Assembly (NCBI GenBank): GCA_900617105.1
Contig: UYFQ01000199.1
Coordinates: 1 to 43,322 of the forward strand
Source of the DNA: Hydrurus foetidus
Lineage: Eukaryota
Length of the DNA: 43,322 nucleotides
Direction: 5' to 3'
The notes beneath the pieces were generated by a model. That model had not been told where the DNA came from, did not search any database, and saw only the letters and a list, made by a program, of their open reading frames with translations. Positions 1,559 through 43,322 of the stretch are shown one piece after another; position 1 is the first letter of the stretch, and the number at the start of each line of letters is the position of its first letter. Both the position numbers and the translations under genes were made by a program.

Positions 1559-2779
1559 TTACTTTCCCTTCCCAGGTGAAGCAGTTGGTTTTCCTCCTGG
1601 GCTCTTGCCTCCTTCCTCGCCCCAGTATTGAGCGACGGTGTCTGCAGCCTCAGATCTGCATTCCCGGGCTAGATGCCCATACTTTCCACAGTTATTACAC
1701 GGACCTCGTCTGTACCCCGCTGGTGGGGATTTGTTGGCAGTGTAAGCTCCCACAGGTGATCCTTTCTCTCTCGTTGATGCCTCCGGTGAGTCTGCTCCGT
1801 CCTTAACCCACTTTGCATTGGGTGCACCCTTTCCATTATGGCCTCCGGGGTATCCTCCTCTGTTACCTCTGCCTCCTCTTCCGGTCATTGAGAATGCATT
1901 CGCGCGCTCCATAGCTGCTGATGAGTTGGCGGCTGCTCTCTTAGGGTTGTATTTAGCAGCTTCTTGATACGCTGTTTCAAGACAATCTGGCCAGGGCTTT
2001 AGTCCATTAGTGAAGAAGGATTTGAACTCGCTATAGGCGTTGTTCAGTCCCAGAATAAATTTCACTGACATCTGACTCTCCATATGTATGTCGTCAATTC
2101 CTCCACAACCAGCCATCTCATATGCCTGCTGTATAGCAGTGAGTGCTGACTTCGTGTTCGTATAGTACATGCTTAGATTTTCATGCCCTCCCATAACTAG
2201 ATCATTGTATCTCTGTGTGATGACGTACATCTGATGAGCTATTCCCAGCGTAGAATCTCCGATATGAATTGCGAGAATTGCTTGCAGCAATTTCCTCGGC
2301 TCGAACTCATTCTCTGCCTCGACGCCTAGCTGCACTTCAGCTACTCTAGTTTTAGAGCTTTCGGACATCTGTCCTAGCATTGCACCGTATAGATTTCCTT
2401 TGTCCTCTTCTAGAGTTTTGATGTTTTTATTGTGGTCTACCATCGACAGTTCCCATATCTTTCTGTCATAAACTGTTGCACCATCCTGTGGTTGGTCTGG
2501 CAGTGCGTAGACTGGGTAATCTCCCAAGGTTCCATCTGCACCAAATATCATACTAACTCTTGATTTGAATGTTGTCATAGCGTACTCCTTTAGTTTTGCC
2601 ATCCATTTGGTAACCGCTCCATGGGCAATGTCCTTCCCAGGTGGTAGATCCAAATATGCTCCGATCGTCGGAATGTTTCCACGGTTGTGGTATGGTGTTG
2701 CTGGAGATCCTCTCCCACCACGACCGGCGAAATAACCTCGTCCACGTCCCTGGTGGTGGGGACTACCACGGCCTTTCAT
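1559..2779 (-). CDS. gag: Copia Gag, RGG-rich, with C-terminal zinc knuckle CNNCGKYGHLAREC
   Basis: ORF 1559..2800 in the track starts at TTG; the first ATG is 2779 (MKGRG). CX2CX4HX4C motif present. Lies directly after the LTR/PBS. Confidence 0.9.
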   Translation of the reverse strand: MKGRGSPHHQGRGRGYFAGRGGRGSPATPYHNRGNIPTIGAYLDLPPGKDIAHGAVTKWMAKLKEYAMTTFKSRVSMIFGADGTLGDYPVYALPDQPQDGATVYDRKIWELSMVDHNKNIKTLEEDKGNLYGAMLGQMSESSKTRVAEVQLGVEAENEFEPRKLLQAILAIHIGDSTLGIAHQMYVITQRYNDLVMGGHENLSMYYTNTKSALTAIQQAYEMAGCGGIDDIHMESQMSVKFILGLNNAYSEFKSFFTNGLKPWPDCLETAYQEAAKYNPKRAAANSSAAMERANAFSMTGRGGRGNRGGYPGGHNGKGAPNAKWVKDGADSPEASTREKGSPVGAYTANKSPPAGYRRGPCNNCGKYGHLARECRSEAADTVAQYWGEEGGKSPGGKPTASPGKGK

Positions 2780-2806
2780 CGTTGCAACTTCTTGTTGCAA
2801 GCGATG

Positions 2807-2817
2807 AGTGCTAATTA
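2807..2817 (-). promoter_or_regulatory. Putative primer-binding site TAATTAGCACT (non-tRNA; complementary to LTR 2958-2968)
   Basis: Directly abuts the ...CAACA LTR end and is the exact reverse complement of AGTGCTAATTA inside the LTR. Confidence 0.65.
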
Positions 2818-3170
2818 TGTTGTGAAATGTGGACTTAAAGGTGTGCCGTATATCCTATACGGTTGGTCACAAGCTCCCCACTGCACTCTCCGATGCGGCT
2901 TCACTCGCTCTGTCTGGACTCAGAAGAGAAGTTTCGCTGTCGGCTACGAGTTTGGGTTAATTAGCACTGCTGCAACGCAGTGGTGGTCGAGTGTAGTCAG
3001 TAGTTGTCGCAACAGGTTGATGGCTATCCTAGATCAAATACGTCATATCGTATGTAGTACGGTACTGCTGTGGTGCAACACCGTACGTGTGGTTCAAATA
3101 TGAAATACAGATAATAGCATCACAATTCGTATACGGAATATCTAGTCTACATAATACTGATATTACTACA
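2818..3170 (-). repeat. Inferred 5' LTR of Copia element 1 (TGTAGT...CAACA, ~353 bp)
   Basis: TG...CA termini. Both ends (TGTAGT..AT.AGTAT..ATGT and CAACA|TAATTA) are shared with Copia element 2. The partner LTR is outside the window, so boundaries are inferred. Confidence 0.7.
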
Positions 3171-3290
3171 CTGTACAGTGTGCATATATGTGCATCGCCA
3201 TACAGCCTTCAATAGCGAAGAGGAAGGTATAAAACGAGAGTAAGCAGTACATCAGGTTTTGATGCCATCCGGCAGCAAGAAGTGGGCGAG

Positions 3291-6074
3291 ATGTTACAGA
3301 AAATGCGGGGTCATAGCAGCTTTACTCGACCATTATGCAGTAGACAATGGAGTAACCTGATACGACGCGAGATAGAAACCAAATTGGTATCGAAGACCAC
3401 CACCCAGGAAGCCTTCGACAATTTTGTATCACTCCATCTCCTGGATTGTGACTGTGATGATATCAGCGATCTCATGCGTACCGTTGGCATGAAATCTTCC
3501 TCGAAATCCCATCTTTATCTGAGACGACATCTGCCTGCTGTTTCAACACAGATTGGATGTTTGTCATCTTCCGTTTGGACTTACGAAAGCATATCTTTTG
3601 TCATTAATGGTTTACAAGCAATGACTCCAAACGATGCGGGTTCGCTACAAATTATTGAAACGATGGTAAAAGTCGGTAACATAACTCTCGACGGGAAGTC
3701 GATACCCACAGGCGAGAATATCTCGATGGCAATGTTGGGTCTTCAGAACTACACTTGTGCGGAGAGAGCGGCCTTGGACTTCATCTCCATTCTGACGCGT
3801 ATGATACCGAAGTGTAAATCAGCATTTCGCCCCAAAGAGCTGAGTCATATCTTGTATTCCTTGAAAGGAATGAGGAGCGATACCGATGAAATTCGCGCTT
3901 TCATACTGGCAATCGTGCCCAAAATACGCAGCAACAAGGAATCATTCAACGTTCCACGCATCAGTAGCGCTGTTTACGGCCTCCAGGAAATGAAATGCAC
4001 AAGTTCAGAAGTACGCATGCTGGTCAAATCCCTGATACCAGCTATCAACATCATCAAGTATCCTTTCGATGCTCAAGCAGTTGGGAACTCTTTGTACGGA
4101 TTGAAGAACATGACTAGTGACAGCTCCGAGGTGCGCGGTCTGCTGTTTGCTATTACTTTGAGAATCAGAAGCTGCAATACAGAATTTACTGCTCAGAATA
4201 TTAGTAACGCCATGTATGGGTTGCGTTGCATGAGCGCGAAGGATTCAGATGTGCGTAATATCTTATCAGCTTTGGTGCCAAAGATCGTCACCTGTTGTAC
4301 GCCATTTACACCACAGAGTGTCGGGAGTTGTTTGTATGGGCTGCAATGTGTGAGCAGTGAGAGTGAGGAAGCGCGGACAATACTGCGGGTTCTACTGCCG
4401 AAAGTACAGGGCTGCACTGCAAACTATAATTCTCAGAATGTAGCTAATGCGCTGTATGGTCTACAATGCATGAGCGATGACTGCAGCGAAGTGCGCGCTA
4501 TTCTGTCAGCTTTAACGCCTGGAGTTCGAGAGTGCAAGACGCACTTTGACGAGCAGTCAATCAGCATGGCTCTGCACGGCATGAAAAACATGAGCAGCGG
4601 CACTCATGCAGTGCAACTCATGATAGAAATTCTCGCGGGGATAACTGAGAAGGCGGCTATTAACATGAGTGGCAAGAGCATCTCCCATGCGATGTTGGGG
4701 ATGCAACGGTTCCGCCACACACACAAGGGAGTGCATTCATTAGCATCAGCTCTCACCAAACAACTGAATAACTCCACGAAGAAGTTCGACATGCCAGCCA
4801 TCAGCAATTCTCTACTGGGTCTGCAGAGCATGCGCAGCGAGAGCACTGAGATATGCTCCCTCCTGCAGTCTCTGGTTCCGAAAGTGCTGTCAGCGACAGG
4901 TCACATGGACGCCAGAGGTGTCGCCAATGCGCTGTACGGGTTGCAAGGGATGAGCTGCAACGAACCAGCGGTACGTGCTATGCTATCATCGCTCACACCT
5001 AAGGTGGAGTCCTGTACCACACCATTCGATGCTCAAGCAGTGGCGAAGTGTATGTACGGTATGAAGAGCATGAGCAGCGAGAGTGAAGAGGTCAGAGCGA
5101 TGTTGCGAAGGCTTACTCCTAAGATAGAGGGTTGCACTGAAATGCTCTCTGCTGACTGCATGGGCGAATGTCTCTATGGGCTACAAAGCATGGAGAATGA
5201 TAACGCAGAAGTCCTTACCTTGCTATCAGTACTCGGCACCAAGATAACACAAAGCACTTGCCAACTCCATCCCGTTTCTGTGGGTGATGCGCTGTATGGT
5301 CTACAAGGCATGAAGAGCGGCAGAGCTGAGATAACAACTCTGCTGTCGGCGATAGCAGAGAAGATGCCTGGGTGGGAGTCACCCATGGATGTGAGGTCAC
5401 TCGGATATGCGATGTACGGGTTAGCGGGACTCAGCAGTGAGATCCCAGCCATAACTATCCTTAATGTCCTTATCTATCACCTACAGATGTTGGCCAGAAG
5501 TACTTCTAACTTCAAGCAACTCACCAACGATGGCTTGTCGCATCTCAGTAGAAATGTCGCATTCACTTTGAATCGCTCTAGAAATGAGCCGCTTAACGTC
5601 ATCTACGATATGCTTCGAAAGGAGTGGCAGCAGCGCAAGCACGCTCTCTCACCCGCACCACACATAGAATGCACAGAAGCAGAGCTGAGACTACTTGATG
5701 CTGCTGCTAAAGCAGTGGCAGGATCTAGTGTAGAAGTGCTACCCACTCACAACTTATTTGGCTTGTTTGAGTGCAACATCGTATTGAAGATTCCTCGCCA
5801 ATCTGAGAGTACCAACGTTTCCGACAGTGTCACAACGCCACATTTCACCTACGTGACTGTAGAAATAGAACGTACCTATGAGAGGGTAACGGAGAAGCGC
5901 TTCTGCATTAGGAGAGATGCACTCTTGGCCGCACAGGGAGTTGTTGTAAAGAGAATAGAAAGCGACCAAGTAATGCACATGGCACAAAGCGACTTGGAAA
6001 AATGGACTATAGCGGCTATGACCGATGTCTCTCATCCTAATTACCAAAATCGAATCCTTGCGACTGCCTCTTGA
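3291..6074 (+). CDS. Helical-repeat protein (16 x 40-aa 'LYGL' repeats, OPR/HPR-like) with C-terminal degenerate RAP domain; probably organelle-targeted RNA-binding protein
   Basis: Intronless ORF; first ATG is 3291. Repeat consensus FxxQxVxNALYGLQxMSSxxxEVRxLLxxLxPKxxxC. C-terminal ECNIVL...VEIE...FCIRRDALLAAQGVVVKRI resembles RAP. N-terminus is Arg-rich and lacks acidic residues. Confidence 0.85.
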   Translation: MLQKMRGHSSFTRPLCSRQWSNLIRREIETKLVSKTTTQEAFDNFVSLHLLDCDCDDISDLMRTVGMKSSSKSHLYLRRHLPAVSTQIGCLSSSVWTYESISFVINGLQAMTPNDAGSLQIIETMVKVGNITLDGKSIPTGENISMAMLGLQNYTCAERAALDFISILTRMIPKCKSAFRPKELSHILYSLKGMRSDTDEIRAFILAIVPKIRSNKESFNVPRISSAVYGLQEMKCTSSEVRMLVKSLIPAINIIKYPFDAQAVGNSLYGLKNMTSDSSEVRGLLFAITLRIRSCNTEFTAQNISNAMYGLRCMSAKDSDVRNILSALVPKIVTCCTPFTPQSVGSCLYGLQCVSSESEEARTILRVLLPKVQGCTANYNSQNVANALYGLQCMSDDCSEVRAILSALTPGVRECKTHFDEQSISMALHGMKNMSSGTHAVQLMIEILAGITEKAAINMSGKSISHAMLGMQRFRHTHKGVHSLASALTKQLNNSTKKFDMPAISNSLLGLQSMRSESTEICSLLQSLVPKVLSATGHMDARGVANALYGLQGMSCNEPAVRAMLSSLTPKVESCTTPFDAQAVAKCMYGMKSMSSESEEVRAMLRRLTPKIEGCTEMLSADCMGECLYGLQSMENDNAEVLTLLSVLGTKITQSTCQLHPVSVGDALYGLQGMKSGRAEITTLLSAIAEKMPGWESPMDVRSLGYAMYGLAGLSSEIPAITILNVLIYHLQMLARSTSNFKQLTNDGLSHLSRNVAFTLNRSRNEPLNVIYDMLRKEWQQRKHALSPAPHIECTEAELRLLDAAAKAVAGSSVEVLPTHNLFGLFECNIVLKIPRQSESTNVSDSVTTPHFTYVTVEIERTYERVTEKRFCIRRDALLAAQGVVVKRIESDQVMHMAQSDLEKWTIAAMTDVSHPNYQNRILATAS

Positions 6075-35044: not shown

Positions 35045-35389
35045 GAAAGCAGCGATGATGAATTACTGCAGTACGACTGATGGTAAACGATTCCAGATTA
35101 CACCAGCGATTGATCCGGAAAGCATCTTTGCCGGTACCGACAAAGTAGGAAGGAGATCTCTGGATTCGTTTATAGAGATGATTGGTGGAGATGAAGTCTA
35201 CTGTCCTCTTTAAGCAGAATTTCTTCGCTAGATTTTCAAACGCGCCTTCACAGCTCACCTGCGGCTCTATCGGATCTGGTGATATCGATCACCTAACTTA
35301 CTACTTCGAAGCCTGAACTTCCAGCTGTAAGCACAGCAGGACTATGTTGGAGTATCCGGAGAAAAGACACTGCTGTAGTCGGAGCCGAA

Positions 35390-35928
35390 ATCCAGCCTCG
35401 CGACCCAGCCCCTTGAGCCAGCATTTTATTTGGTCGTCGGATCGAGCGCGAATTTTTTGTGGAATTTTTTTTCTGAACTGAAACCTCGACCTAACCCTAA
35501 TCTGATTGTAACTGAACCCTAACGCAGCAATCGCCACCGAACCCTAACTCAGCAATTGCCACTGAACCCTAACTCAGCAACTGCCACCTAACCCTAACTC
35601 AGTACGACAAACATTCAATTTTCTTTCCAGAATCCTTGCCGTGAACCCTAACCTTATCGTAACTGAACCCTAATTTAGCGACTGCAACCAAAATCCAATT
35701 TTGACGTCGAAGAGCGGTAACTGAGCCAGAAGTCCTCACAAAATGTTGAAAAAAATTCTACCAGCTCGATCCCGCGACCAAAAGAGTTAAGAGAAGCGCC
35801 TGGCCACTTGGCCAACAGTGCCCAGCTGGATTTTTCTCGAGAAAAAATACTCGAATTTGTGATAAATTCGCGCTCGATCCGACGACCAAAAAAATGCTGA
35901 CTCAAAGGGCTGGGTCGCGAGGCTGGAT
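35390..35928. mobile_element. Non-autonomous TIR element (MITE-like, ~540 bp) with ~65-bp terminal inverted repeats
   Basis: ATCCAGCCTCGCGACCCAGCCC...GGTCGTCGGATCGAGCGCGAATTT at 35390-35455 is the near-perfect reverse complement of 35864-35928. No coding capacity. TSD ambiguous. Confidence 0.85.
35511..35602 (+). repeat. 25-bp tandem repeat (3.7 copies) containing telomere-like AACCCTAA
   Basis: Units ACTGAACCCTAAC(G/T)CAGCAA..GCC start at 35511, 35536, 35561 and 35586. Confidence 0.9.
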
Positions 35929-35941
35929 AATCTTTCCGTGC

Positions 35942-36230
35942 TGTAGTTGTATAGTATATGTGTGGATCCTGACGGTCAGCGGTGTGCATCCTGGGGATGT
36001 GGACTCTGGACCGTTGGTTGTATGGGCTCATGGAGCCATCCATTCATCTATCTTCAACATGGATAGAACATGTGCAATTGCCTAGATATGTAAAGCTTCG
36101 TTGCCGTCTTGATTGATGCCGGTGCACAAGTTTAATTATCAAGTAATTACACAGTACAAGTCTATTTTACGAGCCTTGGGTCACCGGTAGCAAGAGTCAC
36201 TAAGCATCCGGACTTAGAGAAAGCCCAACA
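35942..36230 (+). repeat. Inferred 5' LTR of Copia element 2 (TGTAGT...CAACA, ~289 bp)
   Basis: Same terminal motifs as element 1 and lies 25 nt before the gag ATG. Partner LTR not in the window. Confidence 0.7.
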
Positions 36231-36240
36231 TAATTAAACT
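36231..36240 (+). promoter_or_regulatory. Putative primer-binding site TAATTAAACT (complementary to LTR 36129-36138)
   Basis: Abuts CAACA and is the exact reverse complement of AGTTTAATTA in the LTR. Confidence 0.65.
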
Positions 36241-36255
36241 AAGCAGCGCACCGAG

Positions 36256-37673
36256 ATGCCGCCGAAGAAACTAGAAGAACCAAAATCAGGTGCAGAGCCG
36301 TGCATGCTGAAATTTGGGCGTTACAACAACGTGGTTCAGTGGAGGGAAGATATGCAGAACGAGGCATGCGGCCTCTACGGGATGACGGGCACGTTCTTCA
36401 CCACCAACAAGAGTTACGCCCATCCGTATCCTCGCGAGGAGGACTACAACCCCACCTTTCTAACGGTGGAAATTGATACCCCGACAGCGGGTACCGAAAA
36501 CGAAGACGAGGAAGACGAGTCCGTAGACTTCGAAAATGTCATGATCGGGCCACAGCTTCCTCCAGAGCCCTCTGTCGTGTACTCCGAGGCACTTATCGAC
36601 AGGCTGAGAGCCAATGCGTTCGAGGGACGCCGCAAGGCAGTAGAGACTCAAAAAGTCGACGAGCAAAAGCTCTTCCCACTCATGTGGTCGAGAATGTCGA
36701 CGGGGTCCAAATCCAAGGTGCGCGAGGAACCAGGATTCGAAGCGGCCCGTCTCAGACTTGACAGTGTGAAACTGTGGGAGTACATTCGTAGGAGCCACTT
36801 AACTCACGTCTACGGAGAAGATGATTGAATGAGAGCAATGAACGTTCACGAGCAAACGATTAGGTACAACTACCTCAGACAAGGTGAACGTGAAATAATA
36901 GGCGATTTCAAGACACGCTTCGACAATCAGGTATTAGCCAACAGAGGTGTTGGCATGACTGAAGTAGAAGAACCGATTAGAGCAATCGACTTCCTCAGTA
37001 AGTTAGACCCGAAAAGGTATACCGGTATGTTGACACTGATGCGTAACAACGCTGTACAAAACCTGCCGAATAGTTTCCCTTCTACCTTAGCCGGAGCCTA
37101 CAGGGTAGCGTCATCCTGGACCAGCTCGGGCGGCGGAGTCCCCCTCGGAGCCGAGCAACATTCCGCATTCCTCACTGACTCTTTGATAGGCACAAAGGAA
37201 AAAGTCCCGGGAAAAGGATCGAAGGGGAAGACAGCGGGGACGAAGAAGAAAGTATCGTCAGTGATATGTTTCGTTTGCGGAAAGACGGGTCATTTCGCAA
37301 GAGATTGTGATCAACGCAAAGATGGAGAGCACGCTCTACTCACCAGCGTTGAAGAAGATATTGAGGAGGACGACGAGAGCATAGAAGCAGCCTTCGTCGC
37401 GACAGACGTAGTCGTACTTTTCACTCGCAATCACGTGCTTCTAGGCAACCAAGATTCGGTTAACATCTTTTGCAACCCAAGCCTTCTCACGGATATTAGG
37501 AAATCGCAACACGCGATCCTGTTTAATGGAGTACAGTCCGAAGCGCATGGAGTCAGAGTCGATCAAGAAGGAGACTTTGGCGAGATTGGACCTGTCTACT
37601 TCAGTCGTGGGGCAACGGCCAACATACTGTCCTTCGCCGCCATGGCAGACAGCGGAGCAGACATCAGCTACTA
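36256..37673 (+). pseudogene. gag-pol: Copia gag-protease, single frame with one in-frame TGA (36826-36828) and a degenerate protease active site
   Basis: ORFs 36256..36828 and 36829..37692 are contiguous in one frame. LLGNQ occurs where LLD is expected. Confidence 0.85.
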
Positions 37674-37942
37674 TGGTCATAACGGGGCCTAGGACGGAGG
37701 ACGGAGGTTTCGATAGTTGACGGAGGATTAAAGACGGAGGCGTGGGACACGAGAAGACGTTGCTAGGAGGGATAACGTTGTGTTTATAGTTTACAGTTAA
37801 AGGATAGGTGATGTACAGTCTCCTAACAGGGCGGGAGATCTATGTAGAACTAAGACCTAAAACTGGAATCTGGGCGTATTGTACCTATTGTACCTAGTTA
37901 ACCTAGACACATTGTATCCACCTAGGGATGCATAAGGCTACA
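37674..37942 (-). repeat. Gypsy 3' LTR (TGTAG...GACCA, 269 bp)
   Basis: Matches 43116-43322 with about 5 differences over ~207 nt by eye. Starts with TG immediately after the PPT. Contains four GACGGAGG copies. Confidence 0.92.
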
Positions 37943-37962
37943 CTACCCCTTCTTCCTTTTTT
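37943..37962 (-). promoter_or_regulatory. Polypurine tract AAAAAAGGAAGAAGGGGTAG
   Basis: Purine run directly upstream of the 3' LTR TG on the minus strand. Confidence 0.88.
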
Positions 37963-38142
37963 GAAAATCAACACCAATATGTGTTAGAGAAAAAAAGTAT
38001 ATGTATATATATATAGCGTATAAAAACTTGAAACGATTATGTCAGACTTTTACTGACTAAACTCTCCAAAAAAGACCCGTAGGTAAAAAAAATGGGAGAG
38101 AATCCTCATGGATAAAGTTTCAAGGATATATGTATATAAAAG

Positions 38143-39909
38143 TCAACGATGTTGTTTATTGATTAAATTGGTCATACTATTATGACGTAAATAATCATGA
38201 AGTTTAACAACGTCACGAAGACTTGAATAAGGTTCCCAAGTGTTTTTGTCAGAAGGGTAATTTAACCACTTGACTAAAAACTCTATGTGGGTGCGTTGAT
38301 GTTTACCACGATGTTCAAGAATATCTTCAACGAAGTATTCCATGTGATCACGTCGTGCAACATCTAACGGATTTGTGATTGATGAGTCAAATAGAAAAGG
38401 TTTCATGGAAGATACATGAAATTCTGATGTTTTCTGAGTGACGAGATCATATAAAGTGTAACGCGAATTTTCGCCACTAACGACTTTTAATGGACCTCTC
38501 CAATGCGTGTGAAGACGTGAAGGAGGTGATCCATCGCGATAGTGCACCAAGACATAAGAGTCTTTTGGATACTCTACATGTTGAAAGATTTGAGACTGAC
38601 TTTGATGAAGCAAATCTGTGCGAAGAAGTTCTTTAGCAGAAGCTTTAAGAAGGCTTTCTTGCGTTTTGAGCAGATTGCTCATACGCTTTGACAAAGGTTT
38701 GTCATCAGTAACGTTTCGCTCAGCAGGAGGTAAAAAAATACCTCTGTCGAGTTTCAGTACATTTCCGAAAAGAAGTTGAGAAGCTGATATCTTTAAACGA
38801 TCACTGTGGTTAGAATTTAAAATTCGTTGCACAAAAGGAAGTGATGTTTTATAATCTTCTAGTGTGACATTATCGAATGTTAATGCACGAAGATGTCTAT
38901 TAACTTCTTTATTCATGCGCTCAACAATAGCATTTTCTTCTTTAGAGTATGCTAAAGTAAGACAATGTTGAGTGCCAATAAGAGTTAGAAACTCTTTGAT
39001 AACTTCGGAAATGAAGTGTGGCCCATTATCAGAACGGAGTTGGAGAGGTGCGCCGAAACGACCGAAATGTTGCAAGAGGCATTTAGCTGTTGAAAGTGCC
39101 GTAGCATCTTCTGTATGAAACAGTTCAACCCATCTTGTGAACGTATCGATAATTACGAGTACGTACCCGCCGTCTGGAAACGGTCCTATGAAGTCTATGT
39201 TAAGGCATTCCATAGGTGTGTAAGTAGAAGTCGAGAAGCCATGAGCATTTATTGGTATCTTTAACATACTCATCTTCTGACAACACGAACAGTGATCTAT
39301 GAACCACCTGACATGCTGTCGCATATATTGCCAACTTTCATTATTATCTTTGAGACGCTTTAGAGTGCGCTCTAGACCGAAATGTCCAACTTGTGAGTTG
39401 TGTACTTTACTGATAATATTGTACTGCTCACGTGTTAGTTTAAATTTCTCAATAATATTAGCAGACATGATTGCATCAGGAGTATATTCCTGAGGGAAAT
39501 CAACCATGTTATTGCGACAGAGTCGAGACATCGAATCAGCTATATCATTGTTAGATCCAGGTATATACTCAATCTTAAATGAATATTCGGATAAGGCCAT
39601 AAACCACCGAACAATCATTGGATTTGAATTATCCTTGATGTATAACAAGTTACGATGATCTGTTCGTAATGTAAACAAACGATCACGTAATAGCGATTTT
39701 AAATACGTGCACGAATAAAAGATAGCATATGCTTCTTTCTGTATAACAGCCCAACGAAGCTGAGCTTTGTTAAGTGATTTACTGACAAATGCTATGGGCG
39801 TCTCTTGACCGTCAACTAACTGGAAAAGATAGGCACCTACACCGTAGTCCGATGCATCAGTGTGCAAGTAAATCGGATCGGTGTCACTAAAAAGTGCATA
39901 GTCGTGCAT
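38143..39909 (-). CDS. pol: Gypsy pol C-terminal part: RNase H, integrase, chromodomain
   Basis: TDASDYGVGA, QKEAYAI, H..GHFG...CSCCQK, IDFIGP, SDNG, VERMN; chromodomain YFVEDIL...FLVKWLNY...NTWEP. Confidence 0.95.
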   Translation of the reverse strand: MHDYALFSDTDPIYLHTDASDYGVGAYLFQLVDGQETPIAFVSKSLNKAQLRWAVIQKEAYAIFYSCTYLKSLLRDRLFTLRTDHRNLLYIKDNSNPMIVRWFMALSEYSFKIEYIPGSNNDIADSMSRLCRNNMVDFPQEYTPDAIMSANIIEKFKLTREQYNIISKVHNSQVGHFGLERTLKRLKDNNESWQYMRQHVRWFIDHCSCCQKMSMLKIPINAHGFSTSTYTPMECLNIDFIGPFPDGGYVLVIIDTFTRWVELFHTEDATALSTAKCLLQHFGRFGAPLQLRSDNGPHFISEVIKEFLTLIGTQHCLTLAYSKEENAIVERMNKEVNRHLRALTFDNVTLEDYKTSLPFVQRILNSNHSDRLKISASQLLFGNVLKLDRGIFLPPAERNVTDDKPLSKRMSNLLKTQESLLKASAKELLRTDLLHQSQSQIFQHVEYPKDSYVLVHYRDGSPPSRLHTHWRGPLKVVSGENSRYTLYDLVTQKTSEFHVSSMKPFLFDSSITNPLDVARRDHMEYFVEDILEHRGKHQRTHIEFLVKWLNYPSDKNTWEPYSSLRDVVKLHDYLRHNSMTNLINKQHR

Positions 39910-41570
39910 TTAGAAATCTCGGATTTGATCAAATTGAATGCTCTGAGAGCTTCTATTGTCCAAGTTATTTTCTTATACTTATTATAGTTAAGAAGCAACT
40001 GATGTAACGGGTATACAACAGTAGAAGCGTTTCTAACAAAGTCGTGAAAATAATTAACCAATCCTAAAAAACTTTTAAGTTGTTTAGATAGTACTGGTTT
40101 AGGAAAATCTAAGACAGTCCGTATTTTTCTTGTGACATTCTAAGTCCATCCGCAGATAGAACTTTGCCAACATAGTCTATTTCGGCATAGCCTAGATAAC
40201 ACTTATTCGGTTTAAGGAATATTTTGTGTTTTCTAAAGCGTTCAAAACAAGACGAAGTCTAGAAATGAGTTCATCAATGTCTTTACCGAAAACATTGCAA
40301 TCATCGATGTACATTTCGCATATAGAGTATATCAGACCTGCTAACACAACAGTCGTCATGATCTGTTGGAAATAGGAGGGAGCTTGTTTTGGCCCAAAGG
40401 GTAAACGAGTGAATTGATATACTCCGCAGAAAAGTATGAATGCAGTAAAGCACGTGCAGCGAGTGTAAGTGGTGCTTGATGATAACCTTGAGTGAGGTCA
40501 AGTACAGCAAACACTTTTGCTTTATGTGCACCTATTCTACGCAACATCTCACCGATGTGTGGAATAGGATGTGATTTATCTTCGGTACAATTGTTGAGAT
40601 TCCGAAAATCAATACACATGCGCTTAGTTCCATCAGATTTTGGAACTAGTAAAACTTGGCTATAATAAGCCGCGTTTGATTTTTCAACAATATTATGTTT
40701 TTCAAGTTTGTTAATCTGACTAAGAATGTCAGCTTGATCAACTGTTGATTTAGACCATGGAGGTTGTCTATTTCTAGGGACTCTCCATTGGTCGTCATTG
40801 ACATGAAAGTCAAAAGGTGGAATATCAGCAGGAGTGGCCGAAAGTTCACTGCTAAATATATCCTTGAATTCGTTTACTAGTAATCGAAGTTTATTTTTCT
40901 GATCTTCATCACCTGCTAAGTTTATTAGCGAGAGTGGGTCAGTATCAGGAAACTCATCTATCCAAGGTGAAAACGAGTCCTTGATCGAGTCGTCGATTTC
41001 ATCCTCATCAGGGGGCACAGACTCAAAAAGTCTTTCAGACTCTTGTATTAGTGAGGCTAGAATAACGTGTGTTTGAGTGACTGCCGGTTTCACCTTTTGG
41101 GTTAAAGGATCGACTTTTGGGGAGCCGTCGGAGGGTAGCAAATTCTCCTTAGGCTGACAGCCACACGTTATATCCACCTGCTCAGAAGATAAAACTTCCG
41201 CTAACGGGATTGTGCTTGATGAAGCATTGGCAGATATCTGATCTGGGAATCGTGAAAACAAATTCAATTCGCGAATTGATTTTCGTCCCACTATTAGATC
41301 AAATTTTGAATCGTTTAAAACATAAGCCGTGATTTGAAAAGTATAATGATTATTTAAATCAGGGCAAAAATAAGAAAGAGTTAAGTCTATAGTGTCAGAA
41401 ATATCATAACAATGATTATCTAGTCCACTACAAACTTTACACAATTTCTCTGAAGAGTTAGAAACGAATTGTGTGAAATTATGATTAGTTATAATGCGGC
41501 GATGTATAAAGTTGCCAGCAAAAGAGCCGGTGTCCAGGAGAGTAAAGACTCTATTACTTTTTTCCAGCAT
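39837..41570 (-). pseudogene. pol: Gypsy protease and reverse transcriptase, broken by several frameshifts
   Basis: LLDTGS, RMCIDFRNLN, LDLTQGYHQ, YIDD and FLGLVNYF are spread over different frames. Confidence 0.9.
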
Positions 41571-41641
41571 AACCTCCTGTGAGAGGGGAGATATGAAGAA
41601 AGGAATAAGTTCTGGATCATCGGAAAGAATAGATGATGAAT

Positions 41642-43011
41642 TTAGGTTGCATAGTTGCTCACCCTTGTGTTTCTTCGCTGGGTTTGTCGAGTCTGCTGTT
41701 GAAGTAGCAGGTTTTGACGAAGAGGAAGAGGAGAAGAGGAAGACGATGAAGAAGAGGTCGATGGCTTAGGTAAAGTTGGAATAAACTTAGCCTTTGAATC
41801 GACTTTCAACAACTGCTTATGACCCTCAGAGTTAATGTAGGGTGTCTGTACTATTATAGTACGGAGACGTAGTGTAGAAACACGTGGCGACGAAATGGCC
41901 AAGTCTCCCACAACCTGTGCACAGAGGTCTTTCGAATTTGTCAGACTTGTCTGATTGCACAGATTGCTCGTCCTCTCGTGGACGTTTTTTGATTTTGTCC
42001 TGAGAGGAACGAGCAGGAGCTTTGATTTGGCGAGAGTTATCACCATACAAAGGAGAGACATCAATGAACCGTAAGGCATCAATTGATTCTCGTAGCTTAG
42101 CAAGCTGCGCAAGCCATACGAATCGGAAGTCTTCGATTGTAATGAGTCTTGGCGTTGTATTGTTAAGACTACGCTGTAACACTGCTCTCCAATTGATAGG
42201 TTCGACAGGCAACTTATCGATGAGAATTTTGGTTGCCTGAAGTTGGAGAGCGGGTGTTGCATCAGGGAATCCATCAACAATATCAGCTAAAAGCTGATCT
42301 GTCTTGTCTTCCACTGATTTATTCTTCAGGTCGAATTGAAGTGCGACCTGAGAAACAGTTTCAATGAAGCTCAGCTTGTCAGTTCGATTGACAGCTGATG
42401 TAGGAACTGTGAGATTGAGTTCTCTACAGAACAATTGATTCGACCAATGTTTCCAATTGTTACAGGAGTCGCGACGATCGGGATCGGTCGCAAACTTACG
42501 CTTGAGAAGCGTTGTAAACGATTGATGGTTGGAAACATGGACTACGTCAACTGGTTTAAATGGAGTTCCATTTGAAAGGAGGACCTCCATTACCCGTAGT
42601 ACTTCCTGACGAGAGGGCACGGCGCTCAACTTAGGAGCTCTCTCACCCGTCTGCACATATTGCTGGGGTGGTGCCATCGTCCTTGGAATAGGATTCTCAG
42701 CAATAGCTGGTGTCGCAGCCAAAGCTGGTGTCGCAGCCGAAGCTGGTTGCAATGACAAAGCAGATAACGCAGAAATGACAGGAATATCAATGACAGACAT
42801 GACCGCAGGCTCCGAATTCCGCTGAGGAATCGGTGCAGACAGGTCGCCGGCGGGTCCTGAGCCGCAGGTGGCCCAGGAGACTCGAAATCTCCGCCACGAT
42901 TGTGGTGCTCATCATAACGTTGTCGGAAGGCGACGGCAACAGCTCGAGGTTGCTGTTGTCGACGAGGGCATTGATGGAACTGGTCTTCTTTTCCTGGCGA
43001 CGTACCGCCAT
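41642..43011 (-). pseudogene. gag: Gypsy gag with CTGCGRLGHFVATC knuckle, split over frames
   Basis: ORF 41832..42800 carries the knuckle; flanking frames (ATG at 43011; 41642 frame) probably continue it. Confidence 0.75.
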
Positions 43012-43115
43012 AACTTTAGCTTGATGGGGAATGTTGGAAGGAGTCGAAGGTAACAGTTGTAGAGAGAATAGAATTTCTCGGAGGAAACTTCGGTGACGAC
43101 CGAATATCGATATTA

Positions 43116-43322
43116 TGGTCTGAACGGGGCCTAGGACGGAGGACGGAGGTTCGATAGTTGACGGAGGATTAAAGACGGAGGCGTGGGACACGAGAAGACG
43201 TTGCTAGGAGGGATAACGTTGTGATTATAGTTTACAGTTAAAGGATAGGTGATGTACAGTCTCCTAACAGGGCGGGAGATCTATGTAGAACTAAGACCTA
43301 AAACTGGAATCTGGGCGTATTT
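43116..43322 (-). repeat. Gypsy 5' LTR, partial (runs off the window)
   Basis: Direct repeat of 37674-37880. Confidence 0.92.

Follow-up and report, generated by a model that had tools for sequence, protein, structure and literature searches.

A lineage-wide self-complementary primer-binding site in Copia retrotransposons points to self-priming from the LTR

The two Copia elements of contig UYFQ01000199.1

The window analysed here is a whole stretch of 43,322 nt from Hydrurus foetidus (assembly GCA_900617105.1, contig UYFQ01000199.1, positions 1 to 43,322), which carries two Copia elements on opposite strands. Element 2 lies on the plus strand and has the TG...CA bounds of a long terminal repeat (LTR), with TGTTG at 35345 and CAACA at 36226-36230. 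Its 5' LTR is split by an inverted-repeat, MITE-like insertion (35380..35947, no strand assigned) into the outer 35 nt (35345..35379, plus strand) and the remainder (35948..36230, plus strand); contigs of relatives join these 35 nt directly to the sequence from 35939 onwards, and the LTR measures 318 nt without the insertion. The insertion has inverted ends of about 100 bp, internal 25-nt repeats containing AACCCTAA and a 9-bp target duplication (35371-35379 and 35939-35947), which we take to be Mutator-like. Contigs of two runs exit into unrelated flanks exactly behind 36230, so that the LTR end is fixed independently of any pairing and 36231..36240 (plus strand), flush after the LTR and without TGG, is the primer-binding-site (PBS) position. 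The gag start codon at 36256 opens a gag-protease region (36256..37671, plus strand), which contains a premature stop at 36826-36828 and is cut off by a Gypsy chromovirus (37672..43322, minus strand) with an LTR pair and with reverse transcriptase (RT), RNase H, integrase and chromodomain. Element 2, with its premature stop and with the chromovirus inserted at about 37672, outside the putative priming structure, is a dead Copia retrotransposon.

The gag protein of element 2 has 35 homologues among longer proteins, with identities of 39-84%, and these include polyproteins of 1,573-1,625 amino acids in which RVT_2 (PF07727) stands behind the integrase. Judged by the order gag-PR-IN-RT-RH with RVT_2, which is read from the homologues since element 2 itself is cut after the protease, the family is Ty1/Copia. 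Two of the family-2 polyproteins, P0105 and P0130, carry the RNase H end motif ANVLTK, whereas ADMLTK or ADIMTK is found in family 1.

Element 1 lies on the minus strand and its 5' LTR, from TGTTG to CAACA, spans 2818..3080. Across the protease-integrase region, the family of element 1 is about 31% identical to that of element 2. Element 1 contains a counterpart of the pairing described below for element 2: an 11-nt arm within the LTR (2958..2968, minus strand), which begins at the A of a CA, is complementary over 11 bp to the PBS position (2807..2817, minus strand), 2968-2958 pairing with 2817-2807. Directly after the PBS, a strong local hairpin (2777-2806, minus strand) takes in the gag start codon. 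Adjoining element 1, positions 3282-6074 encode a 930-amino-acid protein with 40-residue (120-nt) repeats.

Pairing of the primer-binding site with the LTR in element 2

In element 2, the PBS position is the exact reverse complement of an arm within the LTR (36129..36138, plus strand), and an extra pair between T36139 and A36230 is possible. This pairing, here called helix 1, had been pointed out in a first-pass annotation of the window together with a second helix, a 7-nt spacer between the two and a location just before the gag start codon, and all of these coordinates proved to be exact. Composition predicts 0.0007 such matches in the 318-nt LTR, and helix 1 exceeds 100 of 100 shuffles. A further null set comes from viral contigs, in which a DNA pattern for the PBS returned chance matches alone, none of which matched the protein set used; with CAACATAATTA and the upstream TAATTA fixed by the search, 10 bp are reached in 2 of 114 of these matches, both of which belong to one inverted-repeat locus. 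The helix 1 duplex is weak on its own (-6.5 kcal/mol). It forms with a mean pair probability of 0.97 in a fold that starts at 36128 and is not formed in a fold that starts at 36110.

The element 2 family was compared across metagenomes from freshwater, sediment and air and in one coded organism. Among the listed substitutions, a list that omits differences near the ends of stretches, 33 of 37 fall into the loop between the paired segments (36145-36225), two into the PBS and none into the arm, for which no variant rows were recorded in four runs. The two PBS substitutions each stem from one contig, at a depth of 2.7, and contigs drop rare variants.

Conservation of the pairing among relatives

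Relatives were gathered blind to the PBS with a DNA pattern for an RT motif common to both families, which returned at least 122 metagenome loci (full flanks for 80) and 12 loci in genome bins. The latter (L244-L255) are Copia RT loci in bacterial bins and most likely represent eukaryotic contamination. Sufficient upstream sequence and a frame open through the motif were present in 51 loci, of which eight were dropped (five with too little LTR, three with a gag start that could not be located) and two were duplicates, leaving 41 non-redundant relatives. For the circular contigs L131, L139 and L189, which have two candidate LTR starts, the start was picked by hand, as was the gag start codon of L131. 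No relatives came from protein-pattern scans for the gag of element 2 in viral and metagenome contigs, for the gag of element 1 in genome contigs, or for RT and integrase in viral contigs, and the RT DNA motif had no match in viral contigs. Helix 1 was scored as the longest perfect complement right after any CA located 8-270 nt before the gag start codon, and each element was compared with 100 dinucleotide shuffles. The arm is picked as the best complement, and the independent evidence consists only of the shuffles, a cross-element control and the CA signal described below.

In 34 of the 41 relatives, the bases following the 5' LTR form 9-17 perfect bp with a site inside the LTR, as the first-pass annotation had proposed for this Copia lineage, which is deeply diverged; the sequence of the pairing changes freely. 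At least 10 bp are reached in 30 of 41, and 28 of 41 exceed all 100 of their shuffles, so that the complementarity does not drop to chance level once the TAATTA palindrome is discounted. One relative, L163, pairs over 10 bp at a CA whose assignment is ambiguous and over 8 bp at CAACA; it is counted among the 34 and excluded from the 33 used in later tests. The other seven relatives were misses. Behind a mutated LTR end, 11 bp are present in L144 and 10 bp in L182; L167 pairs over 9 bp at a repeat-defined LTR end outside the scored window, the junction is apparently absent from L141 and L196, and L184 and L247 are long branches outside the clade. The winning CA coincides with the best terminal-inverted-repeat match in only 20 of 34 relatives, some of them tied; among the five contigs that contain both LTRs, the called LTR end is also the end of the repeat in two (L167, L180), and the repeat runs 1, 4 and 19 nt past the called end in the other three.

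Pairings within an element measure 9-17 bp, whereas across elements 8 bp are attained in 8 of 1,056 combinations and more than 9 bp in none. The sequence of the pairing is largely free, as 32 distinct first 9-mers occur among 33 PBS sequences and all four Watson-Crick pair types are found at seven of the first nine helix positions. The PBS starts are biased to YAATW. The tRNA-type TGG is absent from the first 8 nt of 35 PBS sites. The median RT identity among helix-positive relatives is 41% (436 pairs), and close relatives differ as well: L125 and L177, with 85% RT identity, have different PBS and correspondingly different arms, and the pairs L150/L189 and L143/L173 likewise have different PBS, each with a matching arm. 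Helix 1 is thus a real, lineage-wide self-complementary PBS.

Position of the arm and the start of transcription

On the 5' side, the pairing stops at a CA in both elements of the window (36127..36128, plus strand, in element 2). In 24 of 33 relatives the arm has a CA at its 5' edge, as compared to 30 of 187 chance helices taken from these regions (Fisher p 1.7e-10); in 9 of the 33 relatives, a CA at offset -1/0 is missing. This dinucleotide resembles the initiator described for LTRs (PMC3601003), and in the self-primers of fission yeast the transcription start coincides with the 5' end of the primer (bioRxiv 2022.12.06.519325). The CA enrichment suggests that the arm represents the first 9-17 nt of the RNA, with transcription starting at the A of the CA, which makes A36128 the likely +1 position of element 2. 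The primer lengths deduced in this way range from 9 to 17 nt with a mode of 15 and amount to 11 nt in both window elements. TATA enrichment before the arm was looked for and not found, and the contig of L150, which begins 6 nt before the presumed +1, was not counted as start-site evidence.

The two bases after the arm are most often T (17 of 33) followed by C (18 of 33); G is rare at the second of these positions (2 of 33), and the duplex accordingly seldom extends into the terminal CA of the LTR. The T-then-C may mark the cut site.

A model for self-priming

We consider it likely that 36231-36240 is the PBS of element 2 and that the arm at 36129-36138 acts as primer in place of a tRNA in a Tf1-like manner. 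Transcription would start at A36128, within the CA that precedes the arm, and the front of the RNA, likely its first 11 nt, would fold back onto the PBS at 36231-36240. The RNA would then be cleaved where the arm ends on its 3' side, at about 36138/36139, and, if the process resembles that of Tf1, this would be accomplished by the RNase H of the element; the freed 3' end could subsequently prime minus-strand DNA synthesis through U5. In the standard scheme of LTR replication, plus-strand synthesis copies the primer into the PBS. A self-primer copied in this way would keep arm and PBS matched while both drift. The first-pass annotation had taken compensatory change as a sign of selection; the matched change of arm and PBS holds, but it is not necessarily due to selection alone, since a primer arm would be copied into the PBS.

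The second helix and other explanations

The second helix of element 2 is formed by 36120..36125 (plus strand), which is the reverse complement of 36248..36253 (plus strand) and is separated from helix 1 by 7 nt. The first-pass annotation regarded it as part of a bipartite duplex under selection, a claim that finds no support among the relatives, in which helix 2 stays at chance level. Its mean length is 3.52 bp in 33 relatives and 3.58 bp in the control (permutation p 0.68), 6 bp are reached in 1 of 33 relatives as compared to 3.6% of the mismatched pairs of elements, an energy-based comparison of 32 relatives gave 3.9 extra pairs versus 4.4 in controls, and elements with a short helix 1 show no excess. 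Within the family of element 2, every contig of four runs carries T at position 36251, a C in the window, and this leaves the family with a G.U pair at 36122/36251; in addition, insertions of 1-2 nt in the 7-nt spacer are common in its contigs, and one subfamily has a different sequence before 36125. The 5' half (about 36119-36125) has an alternative perfect partner at 36182-36187, and the local hairpin of element 1 occupies that element's 3' half of helix 2. Judging by the CA signal, transcription probably starts downstream of the 5' half of helix 2. A structure with an RNA start no later than 36120 and with both helices selected as one unit could account for the 6-bp helix 2 in both window elements despite the low integrase identity of about 31% between their families, for the fold from 36120, which forms both helices, for the absence of variant rows in 36120-36125 and for the 12 extra pairs (p 0.09) of L172, the locus nearest to the element 1 family; in view of the results from the relatives, however, we judge it very unlikely. 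Helix 2 is most likely incidental, although it may be confined to a sub-lineage, given the 6 bp in both window elements and the long extension in L172.

Other readings accept helix 1 and assign it a different role. If R ended with the arm in the 3' LTR, the cleaved 3' end of the RNA could anneal to the PBS and serve as primer; the arm is indeed present in both LTRs and is AT-rich like poly(A) regions, but AATAAA or ATTAAA occurs 10-40 nt before the 3' end of the arm in none of 33 relatives, with the reservation that protist signals may differ, and the sharp 5' stop of the pairing at a conserved CA would be expected for the beginning of an RNA rather than for its end, so that priming from the 3' end appears just as improbable as a selected two-helix structure. 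It is even harder to reconcile the PBS with a tRNA or tRNA fragment as primer and an LTR pairing that merely masks or regulates the site. Half-tRNAs are used by several Copia lineages (PMC6317226), and the YAATW bias of the PBS starts could reflect an outside partner; the missing TGG, the diversity of the first 9-mers and the differences between close relatives argue against such a primer, as does the lack of any Rfam match over the region at E values up to 1, and we regard tRNA priming as extremely unlikely. No conserved tRNA match appeared within this scope, and the 43,322-nt window contains no tRNA gene. The idea that the TAATTA palindrome is decisive, either for dimerisation or as a GalEa-type hairpin site, with the LTR match as a by-product or chance, draws on the palindrome of the fungal GalEa Copia elements, which has the same core at the same position (PMC5445492). 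However, the PBS starts with TAATTA in only 5 of 33 relatives and non-palindromic sites occur among the longest helices (16-17 bp), which makes a decisive palindrome hardly credible. Self-priming from the 5' end of the RNA remains our preferred reading.

Comparison with known priming systems

In the literature covered, self-priming is shown for Tf1, a Gypsy element, and for Copia is a prediction only, namely in plant TAR elements (PMC6317226). As in Tf1, the PBS of the lineage described here is complementary to its own LTR and lacks the tRNA-type TGG. Tf1, Tf2 and Tj1, members of the Tf1/sushi group, are Ty3/Gypsy chromoviruses, whereas the present elements are Copia, with the integrase before the RT and with RVT_2; membership in Tf1/sushi was rejected on this domain order and on RVT_2. 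In Tf1, the cut that releases the primer is made by RNase H (PMC7175516), and its 'pretzel' is a structure of three duplexes, two of which flank the primer duplex (bioRxiv 2022.12.06.519325). In contrast to Tf1, the primer length varies here (9-17 nt), and self-priming is predicted from sequence alone. Three tests for Tf1-type flanking duplexes, carried out in windows of 30-40 nt, stayed at chance in 33 relatives (p 0.64, 0.35 and 0.24). A single duplex appears to suffice in this lineage, as neither helix 2 nor flanking duplexes of the Tf1 type are conserved.

For the plant Ty1/copia TAR elements, including Houba and Osr-1, self-priming was predicted from LTR complementarity of at least 10 bp, found in 89% of 203 elements (PMC6317226). 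The present lineage resembles TAR in being Copia with self-priming predicted from LTR complementarity; however, TAR was described from plants, whereas the nearest Atlas clusters of the RT are eukaryotic and most commonly diatom here, a statement based on 2-3 members with known phylum. The fungal GalEa elements have no tRNA PBS and instead possess a Conserved Hairpin Site, a palindrome that has AATT or GATC as its core and directly follows the LTR, whose partner lies 12-41 nt downstream and whose sequence is conserved; the authors report that they found no LTR complement (PMC5445492). Here, by contrast, the partner is located upstream, within the LTR, and the sequence varies freely. Membership in GalEa was rejected because the PBS is variable, unlike the conserved 9-bp palindrome of GalEa, and because the RT of the relatives reads K[AS]RLVAGG and HVD[DG] as opposed to KSRLVI and QTDD in GalEa. 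The diatom CoDi elements (PMC2806351) are likewise Copia and algal, in keeping with the diatom share of the Atlas clusters, and the main text of the CoDi paper contains no primer-binding, tRNA or priming terms. The name 'CoDi-like' stems from the first-pass annotation and is a candidate label for the present lineage. A report of self-priming protist or stramenopile Copia was not found in the literature covered, which extended to neither subscription journals nor Repbase notes, and the large supplements of PMC6317226 may list more self-priming Copia elements.

A broader proposal, to which we give an even chance, is that an old and widespread protist Copia lineage (RT identity of about 40%) gave up tRNA priming altogether and uses the leading 9-17 nt of its RNA as primer in a single bare duplex that lacks the pretzel, an arrangement that would have originated independently of Tf1/sushi and of plant TAR and in which the Copia RNase H would cut and replication would keep primer and PBS matched. 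The available tree is a quick, midpoint-rooted version of 67 rows with no named references and can neither place the lineage nor count origins. The proposal bears on how often tRNA independence arose. The dozens of natural primer variants in a large non-plant Copia lineage lend themselves to testing what a self-primer requires, which is apparently a duplex of 9-17 nt with a biased WATTR end that starts at the initiator and stops at the LTR end, and the model predicts the transcription starts in these LTRs to the single base. Searches for a PBS based on tRNAs would leave such elements without a PBS, which the self-complementary PBS explains.

In the Gypsy chromovirus inserted into element 2, the PBS position lacks TGG and has a complement of at most 6 bp in the available part of the LTR; it is taken up by a perfect 12-bp palindrome (43103-43114), which overlaps the apparent LTR end.
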